A stretch of DNA of 37,219 nucleotides. Origin: Chloroflexia bacterium. Lineage in GTDB: Bacteria > Chloroflexota > Chloroflexia > QHBQ01 > JADMIH01. The position numbers and the translations under genes are program-made. The notes beneath the pieces were generated by a model. That model was not told where the DNA came from and ran no database searches. It saw only the letters and a list, made by a program, of their open reading frames with translations. The number at the start of each line of letters is the position of its first letter. The first letter of the stretch is position 1. Where the stretch lies: positions 1 through 37,219 of the forward strand of contig JBBRVL010000003.1 of the NCBI GenBank assembly GCA_038246925.1. Reading direction: 5' to 3'. Positions 5,101-30,505 of this stretch are shown here, piece after piece.

Positions 5101-6199
5101 CGATCCAGAGCGTGCCCGTGGGAGTACTTTCCCCGGCCAGGCGGCTGAACTGCAACGCGAGGGGTGATACAGCCAGCATGGACCCGGCGATCAGGCCTGC
5201 GCGAGGACCCCACAGCAGGCGCCCTGTCTTGTAGACAAACCATACAGACGCCACCCCGCTAATGACCGAAAGCATCCGGTCGCCCACCATGTTGTCGCCG
5301 AAGATGCGTAGCGTGAAGGAGAGCAGGTAGAAGTAAAGGTTGGGCACGCCCCACCAGCCATAGCCGAAGAGCAAAGTCGGCTTCCCTTCGTTGATGGCAC
5401 GTGCCTCCATGCCTCGCTCGCCCTCATCACCAAAGATGCCGGGCATCTGTTCCAGGTTGATGACTCGCAAGGCCAGGCTTAATACGAGTACGCCGCCAAT
5501 CAGCAAGGCCTCCCAGCGCCGGGGTAAAGCAGGCAGGCCTTGCGCAAAGAAATCGTCGGAAGGAGACCGGAGCAAGGATTTGACGCGGGGCCAGAGCGGC
5601 GCGACAATGGAGGTAAGTAGCAGCATTACGAGGGCAGTAGCCCACAGCCACCCGCCCAATGGATCGCTTATCCTTCGTTGCAATACAAACGCTGAGGTTC
5701 CTGCCAGGAAAAGCGTCAGGGCGGTTCCCAGCAGGGCAATGCGTCCATGCCACCTGGAGGCAGCCATTGCTCGCTCGGCGCTCAGCACCTGACCCTCCGA
5801 CCGACGCATAACAGGTCTGCCTGGAAGAGGACTCGGTGCAGCCGGAGCGCCCGACGCGGCATGCTTACGGACCGGTAGGCTTGTTGTCGTTGTCGGTAGC
5901 TGTATGGCTGCTGTCTGCGAGTAGGCTTGTGCATCTTTGCCCTGACTCTCTCTACGCCGTGCCAAACGTGGTTGAAGCATCGACAAGAGCAGCAAAACGA
6001 TTGCTACCGTGTAGAGCAGCCCGACTGTTGAGAGCCTGCCGCGTGTGATAAGCTCATATTGGGCCCATACGGCCAGGCCGATGGCCCCCAGACCTCCGAA
6101 GAAACCGCGGGCGCGCCACGCACGAGCCAGGTTATCTCCAGAACTGGAGAGAGCATCTGCAATGGGTGATTTGGAACGAATATCGCCAGTCGTGGACAT
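2129..6199 (-). CDS. GT-C/GT39 (PMT_2/ArnT-like) glycosyltransferase with two PA14-like domains and C-terminal NHL repeats
   Basis: Polytopic N-terminal half with LALRVINLEQMPGIFGDE (GT-C DE motif). PA14-like segments (VRWRGSLNITSPGEYVFRLNS...LIDG). NHL repeats (PQGIAVDADGNLYVGDKGNGRI; EPSGIAVGADGRIYVLDRLNHNIQVF). Confidence 0.85.
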   Translation of the reverse strand: MSTTGDIRSKSPIADALSSSGDNLARAWRARGFFGGLGAIGLAVWAQYELITRGRLSTVGLLYTVAIVLLLLSMLQPRLARRRESQGKDAQAYSQTAAIQLPTTTTSLPVRKHAASGAPAAPSPLPGRPVMRRSEGQVLSAERAMAASRWHGRIALLGTALTLFLAGTSAFVLQRRISDPLGGWLWATALVMLLLTSIVAPLWPRVKSLLRSPSDDFFAQGLPALPRRWEALLIGGVLVLSLALRVINLEQMPGIFGDEGERGMEARAINEGKPTLLFGYGWWGVPNLYFYLLSFTLRIFGDNMVGDRMLSVISGVASVWFVYKTGRLLWGPRAGLIAGSMLAVSPLALQFSRLAGESTPTGTLWIAGAYYFFMALRHLRWSDWALSGIIWGFSLYFYAAGKLIIPIVGMLGLYCVVRWRRRLFKHYATGFVLLLFGFGLTFMPYALFSAQEKLPWQGFTGRAQETSIFSPWNQAQAFARYGITYDPSQTAQPLLLNLMAQPSSWGQLLFEQMRATTDVLYKSGDITQFYQITEHNGSMLAPLWAAIALLGLVYGGWKFWDEGYGLLNIMFWGGMLGAALTMDTPSVQRLAGAWPLLMLFPAALLDRVFAAAWPLNIRLARRWATMPIAGLLLFLAADSYHEYFVHYASRCPYCDSTSQARYVQALGQDYKVYQMGIGAPPVFFGYGSTRFIAKGVEGADLAAPADFFPVTDNGGKGAAFLIYPHNYDYRPLVRLFYPGGEESVVKSDDGIERFTSYKITREQISRLQTSRATYTSAGAASISRDEPNLGTVRLDGAVWVPPGGVTYPVTATWQSGVVAPTYKAYTFEIEGTPDARLEIDGRNFPLRTGAGGNQGPRQVEVVLAKGIHEIRLNGTLGGPQSRLSLRWSGTGEISPIKSAYLYNSYGREGILGGLSGEVGPLGSPELLKEDDPFGGFQPESRRNDPFIGFREATVAFGGAPFLVRWRGSLNITSPGEYVFRLNSQGPSVLLIDGTIIGDPAVGQNTGVSAGYLPLSTGNHPVEIRYAWGSGPAIMEWYWRTPDGRYGLVPTSVLTPAARSWLPSEMADAPGAPGPQGEPATLESVFGAGAGLVNPQGIAVDADGNLYVGDKGNGRIVTFSPDGKALRSWGKSGNEQSLQPGEFLDMQDIAVSEEGLIAVTDFKARRVQLFDKQGGFVGLFDASITQTAGPNGDAWSVGGNIYIADTILSKLIKLTLAPNNSLQSVEIVPIAEQDKLEQCLDVAVDSAGRVYAVDIKDRILRISPDGTTTIYRLPVGTSAGGSRLAINPNGSRLYMSDPDRKRVAILDTLSGSMSYFGEAGSKPGQFGEPSGIAVGADGRIYVLDRLNHNIQVFRPPR

Positions 6200-6377: not shown

Positions 6378-9302
6378 CTAGCGCGACGGTATGCTTGTTT
6401 GCTGGCACTCCGGGAAGAAGGTGTTAGCCACGATCTTAGAGGTCTGCCCGCGTGTGGCGTTGTTCTGTGGCCGGAAGTATGGCTTACCTGAGATGCACGG
6501 CTCATTCGGGCCACCGCAAGGATACCCGCTCATTATATTACGCGAGGCGAGTCTCTGCACCCATTCGTAGAAGGGATAGGTGGGCGGAACGTCTTCAAAT
6601 ATCTGCGCGCCTGGTGGGTTATTATAGCCCCTAGCATTGGACACGATCTTCGAGATTTGCCCGCGTGTGGCGTTAGCGTTGGGGCGGAAGTAGGGCTTAC
6701 CTGATATACACGGTTCATTGGGGCCACCGCACTCATAGCCACCCATGTGTCCCCTGGCTGCGAGGCGTTGTATCCATTCGTAGAATGTATAGGTCGGGGG
6801 CACATCCTCGAAGCGCTGTTCGCCTGGGTCTTCGGCAAAGCCCGCGCTGTTAGAAACTATCTTCGATAGCTGCCCTCTTGTTACTTCATTATTGGGGCGG
6901 AACGTGCCGTCAGCGTAGCCGGAGATAATGCCTCTGCATACCAGGCAGTGGATGAACGGATAGAACGTGTTGTCAGAGGGCACATCAGAGAAGGTGTAAG
7001 GAGTCGCCGGGGTAAAGCGTTCGGTCAGGGTAAACTTTGTCGTGTCCTGGTTATCGTATTCGCCCGCCATCCAGATGTCGTATCCCGTCGCGGCGGCAAC
7101 CCCGTAAAGGTAATTGCTGTATACAGTGGGATTCAGGCTGGGTACTACCCTCCATTCGCTGCCGTTCCAGTGCTCGACCAACGTGCGTGGGATGCCTCCT
7201 GTGTAATAGTTGCCGACAGCCCATATATCGTTAGCCGCTACAGCGTCCACTCCTAACAGGAAGCTAAACGTCCCGGCGTTGGGGCTTGGAACGACGCTCC
7301 ACTCAGTGCCGTTCCAATGCAGCACGAGTGTCTGCCCTGTCCCCCTGGGGCCATAGAAGCCGACCGCCCACACGTCGTTAGAGGAGATGGCAGTTACCCC
7401 GCGTAGGAGGTTGACATCGGACCCGACGTTCGGGCTAGGGATTTGGGTCCAGGCTGTGCCGTCCCAGTGCATTATAAGGGTCTCTTCGGGGAGGAAGCTA
7501 TCGGGCGTGTAGTTACCGACTGCCCATACATCGTTTGAGGAAATGGCCTCTACCGCCAGCATCCGGGCATCGCTGCTTGGCCTGAAGGTGGGGGAGGGTA
7601 TTATGTTCCACTGGGTGCCGTTCCAATGCATCGTGAGGGGCTGCCCGATGCCTGCGTGCTCGGTGCCTGAATATCCTACGGCCCAGGCGTCACTCCCTGA
7701 TATGACATCTATCCCACGCAAGAAGTTGCCCAATTCACCAGTAGTGTTTATGTTCGGGCTGGGCATAATGCTCCATTGCGTGCCATTCCAATGCATAGTC
7801 AGGGTGAGAAAACGAGTGCCTGTTGGGTCAGTAGGGTCTTTGTAGTGACCTGCTGCCCATGCGTTGCTGTCGGATGTGCCTGCAACCGCGAATAGATAGT
7901 TGTCGCGGGTTCCGACGTTTGGGGTGGACATTATGTCCCACCCCTGCCCATTCCAATGCTCTATCAAGGTTCGAGCGGGCGCCGGACCGCTGTGCCAGCC
8001 GACCGCCCACACATCGTTAGCTGTGACCGCCGCCGCTCCCCTGAACGTATTGGAGCTTGATGCGGTGTTCGGGCTTGAAACGATGTTCCCGGCAAGGTTG
8101 TCACACGTGGGAAGAGATGTGGCTACTATACGCTTGAGAGTGCCTGTAGTGTAGCCGCCATCCTCGATGTAATAAAGCGCGCCGTCAGGCCCGGTCTCGA
8201 CATCCATCTTGCAGGTGACGCCCTGGATAGTAGCGACGGTTGTTACCTGGGTGCGATCTTCATTCAAGTAGAAGCGGCGGAGGGCACCGTCGTTATATGA
8301 GCACATGAATAGCCCGTCCCGCCATGCCCCTATAGCGCTACCCCGGTAGACTTCTACGCCTGTGGGTGCTATAGGGTTGGGCGCATACCACAGGGGCGGG
8401 ATTGTGTTGTAGGTGGGATCGGGATTGGCGTCGTCACAGGGATAGTTTGCTCGCCAGCCATAGTTATATCCGCCTTCGACCCGGTTTAGCTCGTCGTCGC
8501 ACTCAGGTCCGTTTTCGCTGGCGAATATTCTGCCTGGCACGATGGTATCGAACGCGAAGCCGAACGGGTTGCGGAAGCCGATGGCATAAAGCGAGGGGAG
8601 CGCGCCCGTCTGAGTGAAGACAGGGTTATCAGGTGGTATGGTGCCGTCCGGGTTGAGGCGGTGTATCTTACCCGGCTTGACCGTCACGTTCTGCGCGTTT
8701 TCCCAGGTGTAGTTGTCACCTAACGAGATGTAGAGCTTGCCGTCGGGTCCAAAGTTGATGATGCCGCCCTGGTGGACCTGCTCGGTTTGGGGTGAAGTGA
8801 ATATATCGATGGGATTCGAGCCTACGCCATTGCTCTCGACGAAGCGCACCACCCTGTTGAGGGCAACACGGCATTCGGAAGGCTCGGTATAAAAGACATA
8901 GACGTAATGGTTGGTATTGAAGTTGGGGTCAACCGTGATGCCGAGCAGCCTGCTCTCGATGCAGGTCGTGCCCTGGTAGATGTTCGGGAAGGTAATTACC
9001 GGGCTGGCCTGAAGTAAGTCGTTGGTGAAGAGGCGCACCGCGCCCGACCTCTCGGTGTAGAAGAGCCTCCCCTGTGGGTCAAACGCCATGGCTACCGGCT
9101 GGTTCATGCCGGGCAGTATGGTCTGCACTATTGCGCCCTGCGGTAAAGGTTCGGTGGTGACGGTAGGAGATGCTTGTGTCTGCCGCGCTATGGGTGTAGC
9201 AACTGCTTTGGGTGCGGTCAGGGCCAGTACGAAAGTGACCGCGATGAGGCCAAGCAGAAAGGCAAAAGCCAGGTAGTGGTGTCGAGGGTATGGGGTTCGC
9301 AT
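6378..9302 (-). CDS. Secreted PQQ-dependent (GSDH-family) sugar dehydrogenase + 7 NDVWAVG propeller repeats + 3 SLH domains
   Basis: Signal peptide and AGGAG RBS. GSDH motifs HQGGIINFGPDGKLYISLGD, GFRNPFGFAFD, DELNRVEGGYNYGW. Seven W-A-V-G repeats. SLH motifs FSDVP...GIISGYADGTFRPNNEVTRGQ. Confidence 0.9.
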   Translation of the reverse strand: MRTPYPRHHYLAFAFLLGLIAVTFVLALTAPKAVATPIARQTQASPTVTTEPLPQGAIVQTILPGMNQPVAMAFDPQGRLFYTERSGAVRLFTNDLLQASPVITFPNIYQGTTCIESRLLGITVDPNFNTNHYVYVFYTEPSECRVALNRVVRFVESNGVGSNPIDIFTSPQTEQVHQGGIINFGPDGKLYISLGDNYTWENAQNVTVKPGKIHRLNPDGTIPPDNPVFTQTGALPSLYAIGFRNPFGFAFDTIVPGRIFASENGPECDDELNRVEGGYNYGWRANYPCDDANPDPTYNTIPPLWYAPNPIAPTGVEVYRGSAIGAWRDGLFMCSYNDGALRRFYLNEDRTQVTTVATIQGVTCKMDVETGPDGALYYIEDGGYTTGTLKRIVATSLPTCDNLAGNIVSSPNTASSSNTFRGAAAVTANDVWAVGWHSGPAPARTLIEHWNGQGWDIMSTPNVGTRDNYLFAVAGTSDSNAWAAGHYKDPTDPTGTRFLTLTMHWNGTQWSIMPSPNINTTGELGNFLRGIDVISGSDAWAVGYSGTEHAGIGQPLTMHWNGTQWNIIPSPTFRPSSDARMLAVEAISSNDVWAVGNYTPDSFLPEETLIMHWDGTAWTQIPSPNVGSDVNLLRGVTAISSNDVWAVGFYGPRGTGQTLVLHWNGTEWSVVPSPNAGTFSFLLGVDAVAANDIWAVGNYYTGGIPRTLVEHWNGSEWRVVPSLNPTVYSNYLYGVAAATGYDIWMAGEYDNQDTTKFTLTERFTPATPYTFSDVPSDNTFYPFIHCLVCRGIISGYADGTFRPNNEVTRGQLSKIVSNSAGFAEDPGEQRFEDVPPTYTFYEWIQRLAARGHMGGYECGGPNEPCISGKPYFRPNANATRGQISKIVSNARGYNNPPGAQIFEDVPPTYPFYEWVQRLASRNIMSGYPCGGPNEPCISGKPYFRPQNNATRGQTSKIVANTFFPECQQTSIPSR

Positions 9303-9359: not shown

Positions 9360-11414
9360 CTATGGTTTAGCTGGAGTATTACACTCCGGAAAGAAGGTGT
9401 TAGCCACGATCTTAGAGGTCTGGCCCCGAGTGGCGTTGTTCTGGGGGCGGAAGTATGGCTTACCTGAGATGCACGGCTCGCCCGCACCGCCGCAAGGATA
9501 GCCACTCATGATGCCTCTTGAAGCCAGTCGTTGTATCCACTCGAAGAAGGTGTGCGTTGGAGGCACATCCTCGAATATCTGCTCGCCTGGTGGGTTACTA
9601 TACTGTGCCGCGTTAGAAACTATCTTCGAGATTTGTCCGCGTGTCGCGTTGGCATTAGGACGGAAGTACGGCTTGCCCGATATACACGGTTCTCCCACAC
9701 CACCGCATTCGTAGCCACCTATGTGTCCCCTGGTGGCGAGGCGTTGTATGAAGTCATAGAAGGTGTGGGTTGGCCTTACATCCTCGAAGCGCTGTTCGCC
9801 TGGGTCTTCGGCGAAGCCTGCCGAGTTGGACACGATCTTGGAGAGTTGGCCTCTTGTCACCTCATTATTGGGTCGGAAGGTGCAATCACCGTAGCCGCTG
9901 ATTATGCCGTGCTCGACAAGGCACTGGACAAATGGGTGGAAAGTACTCCCTGGCAGAACATCGCTGAAGCTGCCGGGTGTACAAGGAGTGGGGCTTGGGG
10001 TTGGCGCGGGAGTATTAGTAGCACCTGGCGTACCTATCAAACAAGGGTTGTTGTACCGCTCGATAAGAGTACCTGTGTTGGTCTGATTATAAGTACCTAC
10101 AGCCCAGAGGTCGTTGGGAGAGATAGCTTCTGCTGAGAAGAAACGGTTTGATTGTCCTTCGACATTCGGGCTGGGGACAACACTCCATGCAGCGCCGTCC
10201 CAGTGCAATACCAGGGTCTGCTTGGTGCCGGTTCTCGGACCATAGCCTCCGACGGCCCATGCATCGGTCGCTGAGATGACTTCTACTCCTCTGAGATAGG
10301 AATCGCCTGTGCCAACGTTGGGGCTGGGCACCTCATTCCAATTGGTCCCGTCCCAATGCTTCGTGACGGTTTGCAGAGGCTCCTCAGTAGTGGGGCTGTT
10401 GCCTTTTTCGCCCACAGCCCATACGTCATTAGTCGATGCAGCCGCAGCCCCGTAAAGCCGAGCGCCGTGTACCCCGCCAGTGTCGAAAATGAAACTCCAC
10501 CGAATGCCATCCCAATGGTAGATTACGTCGTTGTAGCTATTGGCGTCCGAGTCGTGCTGACCTACTGCCCAAACGTCGTTGGCTGAGAGGGCAACGGCAG
10601 CATTCAGCCGGATGGAACCGATTTCAGGCGGTGGGTCATTAGTAGGTACTTCAACCCATTGCTCTCCGTCCCAGTGCAGAAAGGTGGGTTGAAGTCCGTA
10701 GTTACCTACCGACCAGATGTCGTTCGCGGATATTGCCGCTATTCCATTCAACCTGCCAGGGTCCGGCAGAGCGATAATGCTCCACTGAGTCCCGTTCCAG
10801 TGTTCTATTAGTGGAGCTACTTGAGTGCAGTCACCTGTGCAATGGTAGCCTACAGCCCACACATTATTGGCTGCCAGCGCCGCTACTCCGGTGAGATAGT
10901 TGTTACGCGACGGGACGTTGGCGCTGGGGATGATAGTCCATCGTTGGCCGTTCCAGCGTTGGACAAGTGTTTGAGCCACGCCCGCGCTGCTTGAATAGCC
11001 AACAGCCCAGACATCGTTAGCTGAGCTTGATGAGAGCGCGCTCAGAACGGTATCTCCACCTTCTACGTTAGGGCTAGAGACAATACCCCAGCAGCCGGAG
11101 ACGAGCGGGTTTTCTGAGATAGGTAGTCCCGCATTCCCCGCAAGAAACGCAATGCTTCCAGCCGCAAACGCTAACAAGCCGGTCATAGCCATTGCCATAC
11201 TGACCCTGAAACGGCTCCTGCTTGCGACCGGGGTCATTCGTCCCACTCCCGGCTGGGGAGATTCTGATTCTATATGTATAGGCGAGGGCGCGGCCTTGTG
11301 CGCTGAATAGCTGGCCTGTACTCGCTCTCTGATTGCGGGCCAGGGGTCTTTCCCAGTCGGCATATCTGCCTCAGCGTGCTCTCTGAGCACATCTCTCACG
11401 AAATCTTCACTCAC
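9360..11414 (-). CDS. Putative anti-sigma factor: cytoplasmic N-domain, single TM, 7 NDVWAVG propeller repeats, 3 SLH domains
   Basis: GTG start with GAGGAG RBS, directly downstream of the ECF sigma. N-terminus MSEDFVRDVLREHAEADMPTGKDPWPAIRERV is followed by a TM at about aa 71-93 rather than a cleavable signal peptide. Repeats and SLH motifs as in the neighbouring gene. The anti-sigma role is inferred. Confidence 0.7.
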   Translation of the reverse strand: MSEDFVRDVLREHAEADMPTGKDPWPAIRERVQASYSAHKAAPSPIHIESESPQPGVGRMTPVASRSRFRVSMAMAMTGLLAFAAGSIAFLAGNAGLPISENPLVSGCWGIVSSPNVEGGDTVLSALSSSSANDVWAVGYSSSAGVAQTLVQRWNGQRWTIIPSANVPSRNNYLTGVAALAANNVWAVGYHCTGDCTQVAPLIEHWNGTQWSIIALPDPGRLNGIAAISANDIWSVGNYGLQPTFLHWDGEQWVEVPTNDPPPEIGSIRLNAAVALSANDVWAVGQHDSDANSYNDVIYHWDGIRWSFIFDTGGVHGARLYGAAAASTNDVWAVGEKGNSPTTEEPLQTVTKHWDGTNWNEVPSPNVGTGDSYLRGVEVISATDAWAVGGYGPRTGTKQTLVLHWDGAAWSVVPSPNVEGQSNRFFSAEAISPNDLWAVGTYNQTNTGTLIERYNNPCLIGTPGATNTPAPTPSPTPCTPGSFSDVLPGSTFHPFVQCLVEHGIISGYGDCTFRPNNEVTRGQLSKIVSNSAGFAEDPGEQRFEDVRPTHTFYDFIQRLATRGHIGGYECGGVGEPCISGKPYFRPNANATRGQISKIVSNAAQYSNPPGEQIFEDVPPTHTFFEWIQRLASRGIMSGYPCGGAGEPCISGKPYFRPQNNATRGQTSKIVANTFFPECNTPAKP

Positions 11415-11512
11415 GGTCTTTCTCCTCTAGCAATCGTCACCGGGCTGCCTCAACTGATTCCATCGTCCACAGATCAAATCTTCCTGTTCGTTGGGGGATA
11501 GGAGGGTGAATA

Positions 11513-12061
11513 TCATTCCGCTCGGTGCGCGGGTAGCAACTTCCGCAGCCGCTTGCGCGCATCGTGCAATCTCCGCCTGATCGTGCCTGGGGGTACATCC
11601 AGCCTGGTGGCCGCTTCGAGGTCACTTATGTTCAGGTAATATTTCATAACTATGGCCGCACGCTGGCCGGGAGCTAGCTTGTACAAGGCTGTCAGGACTT
11701 CTTCCCGGGTCTCCGCAGCCTCAAGGACCTCTACGACATCAAGTTCAGGGGCCGGGATGTCCAGACCTGACCTTTCCGTGTAGGCATCGAGGGAAAGATC
11801 ACGCCTACCGGCAGCTACTTTAAGCGCGATGTTCACAACAGTACGCAGAAACCAGGGTGCGAACGGGCGGGAGTTGTCGAATGTGCCGATTCGCTCGTAG
11901 GCGTTCACGAAAGCCGATTGGGCCACATCTTCCGCCAGCATCCAGTCGTCTAATATCAGGTATGCGGCCTGCATTGCCTGAGTGTGATATCGTCGCACCA
12001 GCATTTCGAGGCCATCGATGTCATGAGCTTGTAGCTTCGCAACGGCTTCCTGATCCGTCAT
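11513..12061 (-). CDS. ECF (sigma-70 group 4) RNA polymerase sigma factor
   Basis: Region 2 (AEDVAQSAFVNAYERIGTFDNSRPFAPWFLRTVVN) and region 4 (LAPGQRAAIVMKYY...EAATRLDVPPGTIRRRLHDARKRLR). Start moved to ATG 12061, which has a GGGAGG RBS. Confidence 0.93.
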   Translation of the reverse strand: MTDQEAVAKLQAHDIDGLEMLVRRYHTQAMQAAYLILDDWMLAEDVAQSAFVNAYERIGTFDNSRPFAPWFLRTVVNIALKVAAGRRDLSLDAYTERSGLDIPAPELDVVEVLEAAETREEVLTALYKLAPGQRAAIVMKYYLNISDLEAATRLDVPPGTIRRRLHDARKRLRKLLPAHRAE

Positions 12062-12221
12062 GGGCCTCCCACCCGTCACGGTGTCCCCGAAACCGGTATT
12101 GCTATATTCTCTTTGAAGGTTCCTTCGATATACATTATCCGGTCACCCTCGATTCTGTTCGGGGTCAACTCGATAAATAATACAATTCTCAGTTAGACCA
12201 CAGTTTTAAGGATAAGCAAAT

Positions 12222-17490: not shown

Positions 17491-18468
17491 ATGTTAGAGA
17501 TAAAGATGGCAAAAGAGATGGGTATGTGCTTCGGCGTGCGCGATACCCTCAAATTGATTGACGAAGCGGGCCAGAGCAGGAAGCGTATCGATACTCTCGG
17601 CACGCTGGTGCATAACCCGCAGCTTGTGGACAGGCTTAATGCCCAGGGCGTGCGTGTGGTTGGCGGTCTCGATGTAGTAGATGCGCCTACCGTAGCTGTT
17701 ACTGCCCACGGTGCGGCCCCGGAAGTCTATAAGCGAGTCGCGGCGTCGGGCCTCGAACTGATAGATACCACCTGCCCCTTGGTTACCCGTGTGCAGCAGC
17801 TTGCGAAGACGCTGATGGAGCAGGGCCACTGGGTAATAGTGTACGGCGATGAGCCTCACCCGGAGGTGCAGGGCATCCTCGGCTGGGCCAATTCAGTTTT
17901 CGATGAGGTCACGGAAGGTTCTGGTGAGGAAGAGGGCGACAAGCCGAAGAGCAAGATCAAGAGCTACAGTGCCCGTCGCGCTATCTGCGCCAAGAGCGTT
18001 GAGGAGATAGACGCCCATCTGACCGCATCAGGCACCCCCGCCGCCAAGATACGTCGTATTGCCCTTATCTCGCAGACCACCCAGAACACCGAGTGGTACA
18101 AGGGCTTCGTGCGAGAGGTGATAGACCGCTTCCTGGAGCATGGCTGCGAGGTACACGCCCACAATACGGTCTGCCTGCCGACTGCCAAGCGCCAGCCTGC
18201 CGCCGTAGACCTCGCCAAAGAAGTAGACGTGATGGTGGTAGTCGGCGGCTACGAGTCGGCCAACACTCGCCACCTGCGCGACATCGCTTCTGAGTTCTGC
18301 CCCGCCTACCACATAGAACGCCCTGAGCAACTAGAGGAAGCATGGTTTGAGGGCGTGAAGACGGTAGGCGTCACAGCGGGCGCCTCTACGCCGGATTACG
18401 TTATCAAGGAAGTAGTAGATGCATTAGAGGAATTAAACGAGAGGATGCCAGTAGGCGTAACTGCATAG
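17491..18468 (+). CDS. ispH: 4-hydroxy-3-methylbut-2-enyl diphosphate reductase
   Basis: GMCFGV, VHNP, TAHG, DTTCPLV, HPEVQG, SQTT, NTVC-x-PT-x-x-RQ, SANT, GVTAGASTP: all three Fe-S Cys present. Confidence 0.97.
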   Translation: MLEIKMAKEMGMCFGVRDTLKLIDEAGQSRKRIDTLGTLVHNPQLVDRLNAQGVRVVGGLDVVDAPTVAVTAHGAAPEVYKRVAASGLELIDTTCPLVTRVQQLAKTLMEQGHWVIVYGDEPHPEVQGILGWANSVFDEVTEGSGEEEGDKPKSKIKSYSARRAICAKSVEEIDAHLTASGTPAAKIRRIALISQTTQNTEWYKGFVREVIDRFLEHGCEVHAHNTVCLPTAKRQPAAVDLAKEVDVMVVVGGYESANTRHLRDIASEFCPAYHIERPEQLEEAWFEGVKTVGVTAGASTPDYVIKEVVDALEELNERMPVGVTA

Positions 18469-18508
18469 TGCGCCAGTCGCTACTTAAAGCATACTCCAGT
18501 CAGTTACT

Positions 18509-19780
18509 TTAGCGCCTAGTCGATTTTGACTGGGCGTTCTTGTTCTTTTCGTTAATAACAATTCCTTTGTAAACAGCACTGCAAACTTGCCCACGAGTGG
18601 CTGGACTGCCGAATCCGAAGATACTATCTTCTAATGGAGAGATTATGCCGTTGTTGTAAGCTGTTTCTACATACTGAAAGAACGGATTGCTCAGAGGTAC
18701 GTCCCTGAAATGCGGACCTCCTGTGGAATTAGTCGGCCAGACTCCTGCTCGTATAATAATCTCGCACAACTGCTCTCTGGCAAGGTCATCAAAGGGCCTG
18801 AAATATGGCTTGTTGCTAGAAGGAACGCACGGTTCGCTTGGTATTGTGCCGCACGCATATCCTCGTACAATGTTACGTTCCGCTAAGCGGTTTATCCACT
18901 CGAAGAACGTGTTGCTTGGCGGAACATCTTCAAATATCTGTCCTCCGGAATCACCAGTGAATTCAAGTGTATTTGAAATTATTTTAGCAAACTGACCTCG
19001 TGTCATATTGCTTTCTGGACGAAATGTGCCGTCAGCATACCCGGTTACAGCGCCAATAGCGCAGAGATGTTGCACGGCATAATAATAGTCATCCGTGGGT
19101 GATATGTCTGAGTAGTTACAGTGAGAAGGGATAACTGTGCCCACAGCTCTTATCACGGTCGTTTGGTTAGTAGAAGAGTTCGTGCTCGAAGCTTGCTCTT
19201 CACTCGATCTGTCCGATAAGCCAGTGCTTTCGAAATCCTCCTGATGTTTGAGCAATGGCATCGGTCGTAACTGACCTAAGGCTGGTATTTGTACTTGCGG
19301 CTGGTTGGTTAAACGTCGATAAAGTTTCTCATATCCCTCTTCGCTGTACAGCATATATCTGGTCACGCTTTTCAGAACGCCGGGGATCGTATTGGCATCT
19401 TCTGGTGCAAACAGTAATGGTATGAACTTACTGTTGTTACCTTGTGCATCATAAATATCCTGTGTTATCACTGCACCTTCCCAAGTTGCTCCCAAACCCT
19501 TCCCTGAGGTTTCTTCCCCTAAGAATCTCCGCTCGTAATCTGCTGTACATATTACCAGAACAAATTTCGCTCTTTTGATCTGAGCCGCCATCCAACGTGG
19601 CCACCCTTCAGGAGGACCTGCTTCTTCGTACCGATCAATAAAGCAGTCGACTCCCTCTTTGCGTAACTTATCCGAAAGTTTCAAGACACGATCCATATGC
19701 ACTTTGGAGTCATGACTGTAGCTTATGAAGACTCGTGGGTGTTCGACTTCAGATTGAGACATCTCTACTCTCGCTGGCAT
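18509..19780 (-). CDS. SEFIR/TIR domain protein fused to three SLH domains; no signal peptide or TM
   Basis: RVFISYSHDS...V-x-x-L-x-x-x-LRKEGVDCFIDRY...PPEGWPRWM...FVLVICT...GLGATWEG (SEFIR), a Ser/Thr linker, then GAVTGYADGTFRPESNMTRGQ, FEDVPPSNTFFEWI and FRDVP...ATRGQ (SLH). Confidence 0.88.
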   Translation of the reverse strand: MPARVEMSQSEVEHPRVFISYSHDSKVHMDRVLKLSDKLRKEGVDCFIDRYEEAGPPEGWPRWMAAQIKRAKFVLVICTADYERRFLGEETSGKGLGATWEGAVITQDIYDAQGNNSKFIPLLFAPEDANTIPGVLKSVTRYMLYSEEGYEKLYRRLTNQPQVQIPALGQLRPMPLLKHQEDFESTGLSDRSSEEQASSTNSSTNQTTVIRAVGTVIPSHCNYSDISPTDDYYYAVQHLCAIGAVTGYADGTFRPESNMTRGQFAKIISNTLEFTGDSGGQIFEDVPPSNTFFEWINRLAERNIVRGYACGTIPSEPCVPSSNKPYFRPFDDLAREQLCEIIIRAGVWPTNSTGGPHFRDVPLSNPFFQYVETAYNNGIISPLEDSIFGFGSPATRGQVCSAVYKGIVINEKNKNAQSKSTRR

Positions 19781-19825
19781 TCTAGCTCTCCAATCATTAG
19801 TACCCTGCTAGATCGACGAGGGGTA

Positions 19826-20560
19826 TTACCTTCCTAGAAAATTACCCCTAGTTGTAGCATACAGTGCTATCCCCACAGCAAGCGGCAGGCTGAGCGAATC
19901 GATGGCACTGCTGTGGCGTATCGTGAGGCTTGTTCCCAACTCTGAGTACTCGGTGGGCAGACCTGACGACTCATTACCGAAGATTAGGCTGTAGGGATGC
20001 TCGAATTTGACTTCATCGAGCGTACTGGTGCCGCCTGTCATGAAGGGGTAGAGGTTGTGGTGTGTGTATCCTGACCTGTATTCGTCGAAGGTATTGAAGT
20101 AGTGGAAGCGCAGTTTGAAGATCGCCCCCATCGAGGCACGTACCACGCGGGGGTCGAATATGTCGGCGGCGGGCTTGACGAGCGCGAGGTCTGCCATGCC
20201 GAAGCCGAGCATGGTACGCGCTATCGTGCCGAGGTTGCCCATGTCGGATGGATTCACCAACACCACATAGTTAGTGTCGGCGTCTAGCTCCTGGGTGTAT
20301 TTGCGGAAGATGCCAATAGCGTAGTGGTTCTCTTTGGCCGAGATGCGCTCGATCAGCCTGTCATTGACTTCGGTGGCTATCTGCCTGCGCCTGCATATTT
20401 CTTCCAGCTTGCGCACGCCTTCGTTCTTGCCCCCGCGTGAGCTTACCAGCACCCGAACTACTTGCTCGGGCCTGGCTTGTAGTAACTCCAGGGTGGAGAA
20501 TACCCCAAACGAGTATGAGTGTCCGTATTCCTTCTTGTACTTCTTGAGCTCGATGTTCAT
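19826..20560 (-). CDS. TrmH/SpoU family RNA 2'-O-methyltransferase
   Basis: PSDMGNLGTIART...G, DPRVVRASMGAIF, LIFGNESSGL, DSLSL-x-x-A-x-GIALY. Start taken at ATG 20560 (MNIELKKY). Confidence 0.92.
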   Translation of the reverse strand: MNIELKKYKKEYGHSYSFGVFSTLELLQARPEQVVRVLVSSRGGKNEGVRKLEEICRRRQIATEVNDRLIERISAKENHYAIGIFRKYTQELDADTNYVVLVNPSDMGNLGTIARTMLGFGMADLALVKPAADIFDPRVVRASMGAIFKLRFHYFNTFDEYRSGYTHHNLYPFMTGGTSTLDEVKFEHPYSLIFGNESSGLPTEYSELGTSLTIRHSSAIDSLSLPLAVGIALYATTRGNFLGR

Positions 20561-20580
20561 AGTGATGCGCTCCGGCGCGC

Positions 20581-20610
20581 ATTGTCGCACAAGGCAAGGA
20601 AGGGTGTCAA
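20581..20610 (-). promoter_or_regulatory. Sigma70-type promoter for the TrmH gene
   Basis: TTGACA-N18-GACAAT, 20 nt upstream of ATG 20560. Confidence 0.5.
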
Positions 20611-25496: not shown

Positions 25497-25626
25497 GCCC
25501 GGCGAATAAATTCACGGGCTAATTGGAAGCAAAGTCCCCCTACGGGGACTGGCTTAAATATATTACCAACTCAGTCCGCGCAGGCGGACTTTGCTTCCAA
25601 TTAGCCCGTGAATTTATTCGCCGGGC
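25497..25626. repeat. 130-bp element with perfect 41-bp terminal inverted repeats and two internal hairpins (REPIN/MITE-like; may act as a bidirectional terminator)
   Basis: GCCCGGCGAATAAATTCACGGGCTAATTGGAAGCAAAGTCC at 25497-25537 and its reverse complement at 25586-25626; inner AGTCCCCCTACGGGGACT and AGTCCGCGCAGGCGGACT; lies between convergent genes. Confidence 0.9.
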
Positions 25627-25701
25627 TGGGTTTACCGATCAAGCTGCGTAACGTGAGATGGCAAGATTCCTGTTTAAGATCTTCACGATTTCCCCCTGAC
25701 G

Positions 25702-26454
25702 CTAAGGCAAGTTGAGGTGGAGTGTCTCCGGTAAATATGAAGGCCCACTCCCATAATCAACCCCTATGCGAGCACCTTCACGCAACAATGCACGGTCGAA
25801 TATGACAGTCATAACTCGGTCTCTTGCTTCGACTGCATTTCCTACGGGATTGTCATCAATCCAAATCATCCAAATGTTGTTGCCTGTCCAGAAAGGTCCC
25901 GGACCTAACACCTTAATACGCCAAAATCTATCAAATGTCCGGGTTTGCAACTGGAGATTATGCTCTGCAGGATTGGGCACTAGAACTTCCCAGGTTACTG
26001 CAGAAGTCAGGGTAACTTCTTCGACAACGTATGTAGTTATGGAAATAGGAAGAGTATCGCCTGGCACAGGCGTTGTGTTGGTTCCTTGTGCGATAACCGT
26101 CCCACGCTGGCTGTAAAAGGCGTCAGATAAATAGCGTCCCATTTCGTTCTGAGCAATTTCTGTGGGGTTAGGAGTTTCAAATGGCACATGCCCCCCCGGC
26201 GTCCATTCGGGTATTATCGTAGGAGTGATACCTGCCCGTGTGGGGGTGAGTGGTAAAGGCGTTGTGTTCGTGGGAGTAGTGCCTACCGTAGTAGAAGAAG
26301 GAGAGGGTGGCTGGGGTGTCATAGGTGTTGGCGACCCTTGCGCTTGCCCCAGGTTCGTCTTGGGAGGATTCGCCGAGAAGGAGAGTGCCACAGCTACGCC
26401 GACCAGCAACAGCAACAACATACCCATGATGGGGCTAAGCCTTGCAACATTCAT
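25702..26454 (-). CDS. Secreted/membrane-anchored hypothetical protein, paralog B
   Basis: GGAGGTG RBS, hydrophobic N-terminus, Pro/Thr linker, C-terminal beta-rich domain shared with 26598..27359. Confidence 0.85.
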   Translation of the reverse strand: MNVARLSPIMGMLLLLLVGVAVALSFSANPPKTNLGQAQGSPTPMTPQPPSPSSTTVGTTPTNTTPLPLTPTRAGITPTIIPEWTPGGHVPFETPNPTEIAQNEMGRYLSDAFYSQRGTVIAQGTNTTPVPGDTLPISITTYVVEEVTLTSAVTWEVLVPNPAEHNLQLQTRTFDRFWRIKVLGPGPFWTGNNIWMIWIDDNPVGNAVEARDRVMTVIFDRALLREGARIGVDYGSGPSYLPETLHLNLP

Positions 26455-26597
26455 ACGTCACCTCCTGAAAAGGTGTAACAACATGACAACGACCTAACAC
26501 TATCGACAGAGAATGGATGTGCTTCCAACAACAAGTCTGTCAGAAAGCAAACTGCCAAGTTTCTTTTGAGACTATTCTTCATGTTACCCTCCTGCTC

Positions 26598-27359
26598 TTA
26601 GGGCGCTATGTGAAGCGTTTCTGGTAACTCAATCCTCTGTAGAGGGTCGAACACTGGTATGCCTTCAGCTCCAATCTTCTCAGGCATGTTGCCATAACTA
26701 ATGCTGATGATCGCCCCCTCTCGTAATATTGTGCGGTCGGTTACTATGGCAATGATTCCTTCTCCTTGACCGTCTGGTGCCCCCACACCTATTGATGCAT
26801 TATCAATCCAGACGTGCCATCCTAAGGCACCCACCTCTGAAGATCCTAGTTGCCCTGTAACTACAAAACGCCACACTTTATCTACAGTGATATTTCTTCC
26901 TACTGCTTCAAAATTTGTGGGACCAGGGAGCGTAACCTCTTCTACATAGTAGCTTGTTGGGCCATTTGTACCAACTGGAGTAGCATTGGTACCCTGAGCG
27001 ATGATAGTACCCGGCTCCTGGTACAATAGGTGGAATAAATAATCTACTCTCTGTTGCGCTGCTATTTCTGTAGGGTCAGGGGTCGGACCTGGTACCCACG
27101 ATATAGTGGGATGTACTATGATCGACGGACTGATTTCAGGTATTCCGGTAGCAGTTGGGGATGGTCCAGCATTGGAAGGGGTAGGGGTGCCATTTACAGG
27201 CGTCGGGGGTGTTGGCTGAGGTGTCATAGGTGTTGGTGACCCTTGCGCTTGTCCCAGGTTCGTCTTGGGAGAATTCGCCGAGAAAGAGAGCGCCAGAGCT
27301 ACACCGACCAGCAACAGCAACAACATACCCATGATGGGATTAAGTCTTGCAGTGTTCAT
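26598..27359 (-). CDS. Secreted/membrane-anchored hypothetical protein, paralog A
   Basis: GGAGGTG RBS; first 49 aa differ from paralog B at only 4 positions; shared GTxIAQGTNxTPV, VEEVTL, WxxWID, DRxxLREGA, LPETLH. Confidence 0.85.
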   Translation of the reverse strand: MNTARLNPIMGMLLLLLVGVALALSFSANSPKTNLGQAQGSPTPMTPQPTPPTPVNGTPTPSNAGPSPTATGIPEISPSIIVHPTISWVPGPTPDPTEIAAQQRVDYLFHLLYQEPGTIIAQGTNATPVGTNGPTSYYVEEVTLPGPTNFEAVGRNITVDKVWRFVVTGQLGSSEVGALGWHVWIDNASIGVGAPDGQGEGIIAIVTDRTILREGAIISISYGNMPEKIGAEGIPVFDPLQRIELPETLHIAP

Positions 27360-28802: not shown

Positions 28803-29552
28803 CTAAGGCTTCTCTATCTCCGCGTAGGTTGGGTGGGGTAGAAGTCCCCACTCGCTTTGCGGCCAATACGATACAAAGGCCGTACCTATGATGCGCTCGA
28901 CGTTCAATGGCCCCTTGATATGGGAGTCGCTTGAGTTCCGCCTATTATCGCCAAGCACGAATATCTCATTAGGGCCGATCAAGGTCGGTGGGTAGTCGTA
29001 ATCCGGACGCTGCCGGATGTATGGCTCATTCAATTTAACACCATCAACATAAACCCCGCATTCACCGCAATCTCGTTTTGGGTCGCCCACCGGGTCCGCG
29101 TCCTTCTTTACTTCTACCGTCTCGCCCTCAACAGCTATCACCCGCTTGATGAAGTCACGCGGCTCGTCCCATGCCTCGAAGACCACTATGTCCCCGCGCT
29201 GAGGGCCGTGAAATAAATAGCGCATATCTGTCGGGGTTTCAGGACTGGAGACATGCTCCAGGAAGTTAGCGTCATACCGGAAGTAGAGGCCCTTGTTCAC
29301 CAGAAGGTACTGCTCACTATGCAGCGACGGCAGCATACTATCTCCCTCTACCTTGAAGTTTTGCACCACCGCGCGCACCACGAAGAATATCAGCAGCGTC
29401 AGCAATATTGTTTCCGCAACTTCACGCACCACGTTCGGGCGCGAGCCGCTGCTGTAAGACCCTTCCCCTCCTTGTTCACCATCATCGTCATAATCGCCCA
29501 AGTAAGGCGTTGGAGGTGTCGTGTGCCAGTAATTATCTTTCTCTACGCGCAT
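28803..29552 (-). CDS. lepB: Signal peptidase I
   Basis: TM, VEGDSMLPSL (catalytic Ser), RGDIVVF, FIKRVIA (catalytic Lys), GDNRRNSSDS. Confidence 0.95.
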   Translation of the reverse strand: MRVEKDNYWHTTPPTPYLGDYDDDGEQGGEGSYSSGSRPNVVREVAETILLTLLIFFVVRAVVQNFKVEGDSMLPSLHSEQYLLVNKGLYFRYDANFLEHVSSPETPTDMRYLFHGPQRGDIVVFEAWDEPRDFIKRVIAVEGETVEVKKDADPVGDPKRDCGECGVYVDGVKLNEPYIRQRPDYDYPPTLIGPNEIFVLGDNRRNSSDSHIKGPLNVERIIGTAFVSYWPQSEWGLLPHPTYAEIEKP

Positions 29553-29798
29553 TTATCTCTCTTTTGTGTTCAAACTTCTCTATGCCGCATTCGCACCACG
29601 GCTCCCCACCTGTAATTATAACGCAACAATCGGGCCATTGTACATGGAATGGTGAATTATGAATTGACGCTTCCCTCCGAGTTATACGTCCTAAACCCAA
29701 TTATCGATGTTGTTATCTTATCCTTTCGGGTAATAATAGAATGTAATTGGGGACAAAGCACTTCCATTATTAGTACTTATGTTCTATAATAACGCTTA

Positions 29799-30158
29799 TT
29801 GGAACATCTCAAGCGCCAGACTGGGCGCGGAAGGGATGGGACAGGCTTGGCAAACGATCCTATTGATGGGCTGCCCGAGCCATCGGTGGCAAAACAAGAT
29901 ACCACTAATTGGGCGATGCGGCTCAAGGCGGCTATGAGCCAAACTCGCCTCGACCGCCTCACCCCGCGCGAGCTTGAGGTATTAGCACTCGTTGCCCAGG
30001 GTAAAAGCAATAAGGAAATAGCCAGAGCCCTCTATATCACCGCCAACACCTCAAAGGCCCACATCCACAGCATCCTTCATAAGCTCGGTTTCGAGAGTCG
30101 AACGGAAGCTGCGGTGCTATGGACCCGCATCAATGGAATTATGAGTTATGAGTTTTGA
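29799..30158 (+). CDS. Small LuxR/GerE-type HTH transcriptional regulator without a receiver domain (start uncertain)
   Basis: LTPRELEVLALVAQGKSNKEIARALYITANTSKAHIHSILHKLGFESRTEAA. Confidence 0.88.
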   Translation: MEHLKRQTGRGRDGTGLANDPIDGLPEPSVAKQDTTNWAMRLKAAMSQTRLDRLTPRELEVLALVAQGKSNKEIARALYITANTSKAHIHSILHKLGFESRTEAAVLWTRINGIMSYEF

Positions 30159-30171
30159 ATTGAAGTTTCTC

Positions 30172-30225
30172 ACTAGACCGGTAACACTTCCTTATTCAAA
30201 ACTAGACCGATAAGACTTCCTTATT
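30172..30225. repeat. 25-bp direct repeat, 29-bp period
   Basis: ACTAGACCGGTAACACTTCCTTATT (30172-30196) and ACTAGACCGATAAGACTTCCTTATT (30201-30225), 2 mismatches. Confidence 0.85.
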
Positions 30226-30262
30226 TCCTAATTCCAGAAGGCGAAGTACTACTTGCATAATA

Positions 30263-30291
30263 CTGATTGGTTATGACTTTCAGCCAATCAG
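30263..30291. promoter_or_regulatory. Candidate operator (inverted repeat) upstream of the Tad cassette
   Basis: CTGATTGGTT-N9-AGCCAATCAG (9/10 symmetric), with a further ATTGGCTGA half-site at 30343-30351. Confidence 0.4.
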
Positions 30292-30505
30292 GGCAGTACC
30301 TAGTTCCCATTTTCCATTCCTCCTCTCATACCCATAATTAACATTGGCTGAGTGAATCCTCGGAATGGCTCTTGTGTTCCTGGCTTGCCGCCCACAACGA
30401 CGTCTCTCCGAGCTTTCCCGCCTTGTATATCACTAATACGAGTCGTTAGTTATTAGCGCACACAACCCGCACTAATAACCAATAACTCCCCGAAGGGGAA
30501 CGATT

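Follow-up and report, generated by a model that had tools for sequence, protein, structure and literature searches.

The stretch of DNA analyzed here, hereafter the window, comprises 37,219 nt of contig JBBRVL010000003.1 from a Chloroflexia bacterium. On its minus strand, at 18509..19780, lies a gene that begins with ATG and encodes a protein of 423 amino acids (aa) plus stop codon, in which an N-terminal SEFIR domain is joined through a linker to three S-layer homology (SLH) repeats. On one side the gene faces the convergent ispH (LytB; 17491..18468, plus strand; Pfam LYTB 6.5e-79) across a spacer of 40 nt. On the other, 45 nt upstream, is a co-oriented gene for a trmH-like SpoU methylase (19826..20590, minus strand; Pfam SpoU_methylase). 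These Pfam assignments bear out an earlier reading of the DNA made from the letters alone (the preliminary description), which had placed the gene by itself between ispH and trmH. A Shine-Dalgarno-like GGAGAG (19786..19791, minus strand) was read from the sequence 6 nt ahead of the ATG, and a TAG stop codon stands in frame 33 nt 5' of it. Because of this stop codon and the GGAGAG at the start, an N-terminal extension hiding a signal peptide is impossible.

When the 423-aa protein was compared with Pfam, matches were found to SEFIR (residues 16-147, 2.1e-16, 60.9 bits), TIR_2 (3.3e-13, 50.6 bits) and SLH (6.9e-17), the SEFIR and TIR_2 scores being compared with hmmscan and not with HHsearch. 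The PADLOC profile bSEFIR (PDLC03957) was matched at 2.4e-50, with protein residues 7-225 covering profile positions 35-235 of 412, and the NCBIfam scan of the protein gave no match above the cut-off. The AlphaFold2 model, built on a 38-row alignment (mean predicted local distance difference test score, pLDDT, 77.8; predicted template modelling score, pTM, 0.49), consisted of two confident domains, residues 16-160 and 222-420, joined by a disordered linker. This linker (residues 165-220; 19121..19288, minus strand) is rich in Ser, Thr and Gln (Ser accounts for 9 and Thr for 6 of 57 residues), and its pLDDT is below 50 at residues 181-217. Pfam reported only two SLH stretches, whereas AlphaFold2 and Foldseek recovered a full three-repeat spindle at 222-420. 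The architecture is confirmed as a defence-type SEFIR head, a linker and a complete SLH trimer, as the preliminary description had proposed in naming an N-terminal SEFIR domain, a Ser/Thr linker and three SLH repeats.

The SEFIR domain (residues 16-160; 19301..19735, minus strand) has a flavodoxin-like alpha/beta fold, modelled with pLDDT values mostly of 82-95. A sequence search of the PDB returned the prokaryotic SEFIR structure 5Y8E as best match (1.4e-11 over residues 15-164), and Foldseek against the PDB gave for this domain 5Y8E and IL-17R/ACT1 assemblies, followed by TIR domains that hydrolyze NAD+ (NADases), namely SPARTA TIR-APAZ, SARM1 and ThsB. All 48 positions conserved at 90% or more among 204 SEFIR-head homologues are kept, including D49 (99% conserved), W60, W63, R85 and W100-E101-G102. 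Glu101 of this WEG motif (codon 19478..19480, minus strand), 98% conserved in the same set, is a candidate catalytic residue; it aligned with a Glu of BcSEFIR in the alignment with 5Y8E and sits near the start of helix 96-111 in the AlphaFold2 model. The preliminary description had put the Glu of GATWEG at the apparent TIR catalytic position. The Glu itself is real and highly conserved, but its equivalence to the TIR Glu is tentative at best: hhalign aligned SEFIR and TIR heads with a probability of 97.5% and set TIR Glu85 opposite V104, 3 residues off E101, at zero confidence. Since the register was ambiguous, assignment of the catalytic Glu by profile-profile alignment was dropped.

According to the accessible part of the methods of the Millman preprint, bSEFIR proteins were selected by an N-terminal SEFIR domain scoring above TIR. 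The protein found here has its SEFIR domain at the N-terminus with a score above that of TIR_2, which places it in bSEFIR under that rule. The same part of the preprint describes a SEFIR protein of Bacillus sp. NIO-1130 that protects against phi29 and whose function is abolished by the interface mutation D40A; D49 may be the counterpart of this D40. In the part of the Osterman preprint available, SEFIR is a single-protein system whose N-terminal domain causes NAD+ depletion. By analogy with this literature on the Bacillus protein, the SEFIR head is predicted to be an NADase, and from its conserved residues it looks active. The C-terminal partners of the best 120 of 953 SEFIR-head relatives included FGE-sulfatase, PNP_UDP, WD40, TPR, CarboxypepD_reg and AAA/STAND domains, and an SLH partner was absent among them.

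The SEFIR or TIR head could also be non-enzymatic, a homotypic interaction domain such as has been proposed for BcSEFIR; instead of having a role in immunity, it would bring a partner to the places where wall polymer is made, or regulate envelope biogenesis. Yang et al. 2018, as quoted in the available text of the Millman preprint, proposed bacterial SEFIR domains as general interaction domains, the D40A mutation affects an interface, and the nearest solved folds include IL-17R/ACT1 signalling assemblies. Nevertheless we consider such an adaptor very improbable: later work, so far as its accessible parts go, treats SEFIR as an NAD+-depleting domain, a pure scaffold role leaves the invariant WEG Glu unexplained, the alternative head described below is a ThsB-like TIR domain with an invariant Glu, and there is no partner gene at the locus.

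The three-repeat SLH spindle (residues 222-420; 18521..19117, minus strand) was delimited by Pfam SLH, AlphaFold2 and Foldseek. Foldseek compared this C-terminal domain with Bacillus anthracis Sap (3PYW) at a template modelling score of 0.79 and with Paenibacillus alvei SpaA (6CWC and 7SV4) at 0.80-0.82. In the accessible part of PMC6081394, pyruvylated N-acetylmannosamine is held by SLH-Trp13, by SLH-Gly29 within the motif GIIxG and by SLH-Arg43 within the motif TRAE. The TRAE-type motifs of the three repeats are TRGQ (R261), AREQ (R335) and TRGQ (R396), and of the GIIxG-type motifs GAVTG and NIVRG have the Gly while GIISP lacks it. The Arg43 equivalent is thus present in three of three repeats and the Gly29 equivalent in two of three, which is a SpaA-like pattern as far as the available part of that report describes it. 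Judged by these residues and by the model, the SLH module looks ligand-competent.

A Cys loop (C310-C318) lies within the spindle. The preliminary description had considered it the same as that of the exported SLH proteins of the host encoded at 6378 and 9360; the loops are of the same type, but their sequences differ, being CGTIPSEPCVPSSNKPYFRP in the 423-aa protein and CGGPNEPCISGKPYFRP and CGGVGEPCISGKPYFRP in the proteins at 6378 and 9360. In the host genome, the polysaccharide pyruvyl-transferase family PF04230 had one match (61.8 bits). Since the family was also matched in 9 of 14 unrelated control genomes, this is weak evidence for a pyruvylated wall polymer.

No hydrophobic segment that could act as signal peptide or transmembrane segment was found anywhere in the 423-aa protein by Kyte-Doolittle analysis. 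The most hydrophobic 19-aa window scored 0.79 and the first 30 residues averaged -0.68, so the absence of both elements claimed in the preliminary description held, the more so as no upstream extension is possible. The host genome (G000) is metagenome-assembled; its 505 contigs add up to 3.94 Mb, and its completeness is 85%. Besides the gene of the 423-aa protein, 52 further open reading frames (ORFs) in it matched the SLH module at E <= 1e-10. Of these, 37 had an N-terminal hydrophobic segment, 11 were cut by contig ends, 3 were short fragments and 1, at 9360-11414 of the window, had a transmembrane segment at residues 73-95. From this census, no other complete SLH protein of the assembly combines a folded, soluble head with the lack of a membrane segment as the 423-aa protein does. 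The SLH family of this genome is very large, most of the 53 ORFs being 400-1700 aa long with signal peptides, and relatives in the order have a similarly expanded family.

A complete SLH spindle in which the Arg and Gly that determine ligand binding are present, a Cys pattern like that of the exported paralogues, and a genome with a PF04230 match and dozens of SLH surface proteins would all fit a protein that is anchored to the wall. Such a protein would leave the cell independently of Sec and Tat, through a holin-like pore, lysis of a subpopulation or another system, and its SLH trimer would bind pyruvylated wall polymer, with the SEFIR/TIR domain at the surface either working outside the cell as an NAD(P) glycohydrolase or mediating protein interactions. 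Phage endolysins have a catalytic domain and a C-terminal wall-binding domain and lack a signal peptide. An enzymatic N-terminal domain followed by a wall-binding domain without signal peptide recalls them, though the likeness is one of overall layout only. The N-terminal domain here is not muralytic and no homology was found: tblastn of the cassette (the SLH module with its border, as defined below) gave 0 matches in 50,697 phage records and the IMG/VR search one weak match of 27 residues, so a phage origin of the cassette from the wall-binding domain of an endolysin had no support. Against wall anchoring there are also the lack of any hydrophobic segment or possible upstream extension, the fact that among the 53 SLH ORFs this is the only complete one without a membrane or signal segment, the absence of an adjacent holin or secretion gene, and the presence of PF04230 in 9 of 14 unrelated genomes. 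Moreover, the domains that accompany either head in its listed relatives are typically intracellular (STAND NTPases, WD40, TPR, QueC). We therefore regard a wall-anchored protein as quite improbable.

The same SLH cassette was found on a second type of head. Two metagenomic proteins, the intact P0003 (385 aa) and the 310-aa fragment P0002, carry the cassette behind canonical TIR heads, and their C-terminal ~210 residues showed 82-85% BLAST identity to the 423-aa protein over the matched part. In the comparison of the cassette with P0002, 198 of 210 residues were identical and 12 changed. The TIR head of P0003 matched the PADLOC profile ThsB (PDLC00420) at 3.2e-50 and keeps 36 of 38 conserved positions, with the invariant Glu85 among them. 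Its 120 listed relatives pair with QueC, CHAT, TPR, WD40 and NB-ARC, and an SLH tail was present in none of the 119 other than P0003. What is new here is that one SLH cassette occurs on both a SEFIR and a ThsB-like TIR head, with recombination at the head junction. Because the gene is intact and has a sister version with a different immune head, the odd pairing of SEFIR with SLH looks functional and not accidental.

The fusion is nevertheless extremely rare. In the representative search, the cassette occurred among the best 150 of 46,997 matches only in the query itself (P0001) and in P0002. Three cassette proteins are known in the collections searched, each the sole member of its own 90%-identity cluster. 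SLH was absent from the 8 representatives that were scanned (six multi-stretch and two single-stretch SEFIR proteins), in which SEFIR was combined with TIR, PNP, STAND or CHASE2. A search of shorter proteins gave 22 matches with a best identity of 54% and no further cassette member, a scan of genome contigs for the cassette gave 30 pattern matches with 0 relatives among them, a scan of metagenome contigs found only the contig of P0002 (L047), and the ESM Atlas had no usable match. As the matches inspected were the best 120 or 150 of 953, 696 and 46,997, more distant fusions of SEFIR or TIR with SLH are possible beyond them.

The 1231-nt contig L047, which encodes P0002, allowed the two alleles to be compared at the DNA level. 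By blastn and base-by-base alignment, the cassette common to both (18498..19141, minus strand) is 94.3% identical in nucleotides. The homology sets in sharply at 19141 and extends past the stop codon by 11 nt (18508-18498). Differences were distributed unevenly: a tract at 18745..19141 (minus strand) had ~4 differences in ~395 nt vs ~33 in the remaining ~235 nt, and the end of this tract, in which identity is ~99%, coincides exactly with the head junction. Such a pattern is the sequence signature of recent recombination or gene conversion, bounded by the end of homology. Over the cassette there were 20.5 synonymous and 14.5 non-synonymous differences, and the resulting ratio of non-synonymous to synonymous rates (dN/dS) of 0.19 indicates purifying selection.

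In L047 a PhzF-like gene begins after the cassette gene, and this fragment of it is 94.5% identical to PhzF of a congener (G005); the G+C content (GC) of the allele is 0.43-0.46 vs 0.56 in the adjacent PhzF fragment. The TIR head of L047 is cut by a repeat terminus just before the DIEL / conserved Glu motif. Six contigs of the host genome (C141, C333, C412, C310, C253 and C105) have the same repeat terminus (L047:1-67) ~74 nt from their ends, and this multi-copy terminus, which breaks many contigs of that genome, is probably the end of an insertion sequence.

Sequence contigs from further runs supported both allele types. In run X1, which may be the source sample, an independently built 914-nt contig spans 18896-19809 with 0 differences and bridges the junction between head and cassette. 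In X2, from another study, the SEFIR type was represented by 18959-19150 with 1 difference and 19214-19422 with 3, on either side of the junction. In X3 and X4, from two further studies, the cassette is joined to the TIR linker of the L047 type, diverging from the window at 19135, and X3 also contains a piece of SEFIR head with 94% identity. A chimeric join, which the preliminary description had named as a possible artefact, is unlikely in view of these four sets of contigs. No RNA run was among the listed runs holding the gene sequence, which counts neither way.

The same data bear on whether the fusion could be a neutral or decaying chimera, that is, a recent accident of domain shuffling in an accessory slot without selected function. 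This would agree with the extreme rarity of three proteins each alone in its cluster, with the lack of any shorter fragment above 54% identity, with the absence of the fusion from 40 relatives and with the interruption of one allele by a mobile-element end. It agrees poorly with two intact ORFs that carry different heads on the same cassette, with the dN/dS of 0.19, with the retention of conserved head positions (48/48 in SEFIR, 36/38 in TIR), with near-identical copies in contigs of at least two studies per allele type, and with a head and a module alike in foreign composition, whose fusion predates arrival in this genome. We find a chimera of this kind distinctly unlikely. The decaying singleton that the preliminary description had allowed for was thus not what we found; the same cassette stands on a second TIR-superfamily head elsewhere and bears the mark of purifying selection.

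The GC was 0.456-0.492 across the gene vs 0.55-0.58 in its neighbours, and that of the genome is 0.56. Head and module were alike in GC (0.465 and 0.461) and in GC at third codon positions (GC3; 0.441 and 0.431), while GC3 was 0.68 in ispH, 0.71 in trmH and 0.68 in a host SLH gene. The remark that the gene is richer in AT than ispH was therefore correct (GC3 of 0.44 and 0.43 for head and module vs 0.68). This composition marks the whole gene as foreign and horizontally acquired. Since head and module share it, the fusion predates arrival, and since the SLH modules of the host itself are at most 58% identical to the cassette, it was not built from host SLH genes. In the promoter scan the sole promoter-like site was at 20610-20581, upstream of trmH, and the 45-nt spacer between trmH and the gene had none.

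The interval between ispH and trmH was compared among congeners. Full-length ispH shows 72-77% nucleotide identity to theirs, and one shorter piece of G005 shows 83%. In 15 congeners the interval ranges from ~0.2 kb to ~3.8 kb, and its contents were scanned in the 13 published ones. In G011 it is empty, with 57 nt between both ORFs (L042). In nine congeners PhzF adjoins trmH. G012 has a type II methylase (1.3e-64) and a restriction enzyme (4.5e-59) at L032:2242-4205, G009 two tandem TIR genes adjoining ispH (L038:3531-4412), G019 a patatin (L041:1892-3184) and G005 a DUF900 hydrolase; other congeners have metabolic genes. Within the genus, the contents of this slot are variable, and in some congeners its cargo is of the defence type. 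PhzF was not found by tblastn in the 85%-complete assembly of the host, and the 427-nt spacer between trmH and PhzF of G005 contained no cassette remnant. The TIR genes of G009 were ruled out as source of the P0003 head, with identities of only 30% and 23%.

The fusion of SEFIR with SLH was found in 0 of 40 relatives. SEFIR was present in 3 of 40 genomes of the order, the host, G018 and G022 (unpublished). The SEFIR protein of G018 (L011:1035-1655) is a stand-alone protein of 206 aa without C-terminal domain, encoded at an unrelated locus, and is 56% identical to the head, with a PADLOC bSEFIR match of 2.8e-56.

Taken together, we favour the reading that the gene encodes a cytoplasmic, single-gene, NAD+-depleting abortive-infection protein of the bSEFIR class, in which the SLH module replaces the usual C-terminal sensor; we put its probability at about 0.5. 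In its favour are the membership of the head in a defence family, a modular use of heads that the ThsB-like allele has in common, the selection on the cassette, the lack of an export signal, the accessory and foreign nature of the gene, and the defence genes carried by the slot in congeners. Under this reading, the ready-made fusion would have arrived by horizontal transfer into the variable slot downstream of trmH, and its effector head, SEFIR or ThsB-like TIR, would be exchanged through recombination at the cassette border. The SEFIR domain, as a TIR-fold enzyme, would hydrolyze NAD+ once several copies come together, with the flexible linker tethering it to the SLH trimer as a trigger-recognition or regulatory module. 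A multivalent ligand on the SLH module might then cluster the heads, and the resulting depletion of NAD+ would stop phage replication. Candidates for the ligand are precursors of pyruvylated secondary cell-wall polymers at the membrane's inner face or, alternatively, a phage protein with affinity for SLH modules. That the head is an active NADase, that the protein stays in the cytoplasm and serves in defence, which trigger it responds to and that clustering activates it are all predictions of this model.

Several points weigh against it. Positions 236-412 of the bSEFIR profile, its C-terminal half, were not matched by the 423-aa protein, and E101 is only a tentative equivalent of the TIR catalytic Glu. 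The ligand known for SLH modules is found outside the membrane, and we know of no cytoplasmic SLH protein. The Cys pattern common to the protein and the exported SLH paralogues suggests an extracytoplasmic type of fold. By Pfam, the neighbours in the window are housekeeping genes and not a defence island. The interruption of the TIR head in L047 before its Glu motif could mean that the gene is dispensable or costly, and the fusion is as rare as described above. No description of a fusion of TIR or SEFIR with SLH was found in the literature searched, the supplementary tables of SEFIR homologues of the Millman preprint being outside that search.

A more specific version of the favoured reading makes the SLH trimer an intracellular glycan sensor. 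Pyruvylated wall-polymer precursors or fragments, reaching the membrane's cytoplasmic side as infection upsets the synthesis of the envelope, would template the clustering of SEFIR or TIR heads into an active NADase. We think this version unlikely. If it were true, intracellular glycan sensing of this kind would be a bacterial counterpart of what immune receptors of animals and plants do when they sense wall fragments in the cytosol, with interchangeable effector heads on one sensor cassette.

The protein shares features with several known systems. It resembles the bSEFIR system of Bacillus sp. NIO-1130 (PDLC03957) in its N-terminal SEFIR domain (2.4e-50, 48/48 residues), in being a single gene without partners and in its expected output, NAD+ depletion, as predicted from the available literature on the Bacillus protein. 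It differs in that the linker and the three-repeat SLH spindle stand in place of profile positions 236-412, and an SLH partner was absent among the best 120 relatives and the best 150 representatives. With ThsB-like and other bacterial TIR proteins that have variable C-terminal sensors it shares the logic of an effector head with a variable tail, and the P0003 head itself matches PDLC00420. Unlike them, an SLH tail occurred only in P0003 among the 120 listed, and the short P0003 contig shows no neighbours, so no ThsA-type partner was seen. The SLH-anchored proteins Sap of B. anthracis and SpaA of P. alvei have the same three-pronged spindle (template modelling scores of 0.79-0.82), with Arg in three repeats and Gly in two, but here the module comes after an enzyme domain of cytoplasmic type, at the C-terminus of a 423-aa protein without signal peptide or transmembrane segment. 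Defence proteins of the DSR1/DSR2 type may work in a similar way, with an N-terminal NAD+-depleting domain activated by C-terminal detection of phage, according to the accessible part of the Osterman preprint. They have a SIR2 NADase fold in contrast to SEFIR/TIR and no sequence relation to the protein studied here, in which a wall-polymer-binding module would be the sensor.

It is the target of the sensor domain that defines a single-protein, NAD+-depleting defence protein, and a wall-polymer-binding module in the sensor position was not described in the literature searched. If the favoured cytoplasmic reading is right, the protein would be a tractable case of ligand-driven clustering that switches on a TIR-fold enzyme, because of the small size of the SLH module, the ligand chemistry of which is already established for Sap and SpaA. 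The two alleles, in which the cassette follows a SEFIR head in one case and a ThsB-like TIR head in the other and the recombination tract stops at the junction, offer a clear case from nature of how effector heads are swapped in bacterial immunity. Should the protein be located on the wall instead, a TIR-fold protein would be displayed at the surface after export without a known signal, which would also be unusual.

Elsewhere in the window, patches of low GC (0.45-0.48) were seen at 25501-27000 and 29501-30500 and may be other foreign DNA; the ORFs 25702-26454 and 26598-27359 of these patches had no Pfam match. At 9360-12079, a gene for an extracytoplasmic function (ECF)-type sigma factor (11513-12079) adjoins that of a 684-aa protein with a cytoplasmic N-terminus, a transmembrane segment at residues 73-95 and three C-terminal SLH repeats, possibly an anti-sigma factor with its anchor in the wall polymer. 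The SLH protein encoded at 6378-9302 is an SLH-anchored glucose/sorbosone dehydrogenase, and directly upstream of it, at 2129-6199, is encoded a 1356-aa protein with a PMT_2 glycosyltransferase region, PA14 and NHL repeats.

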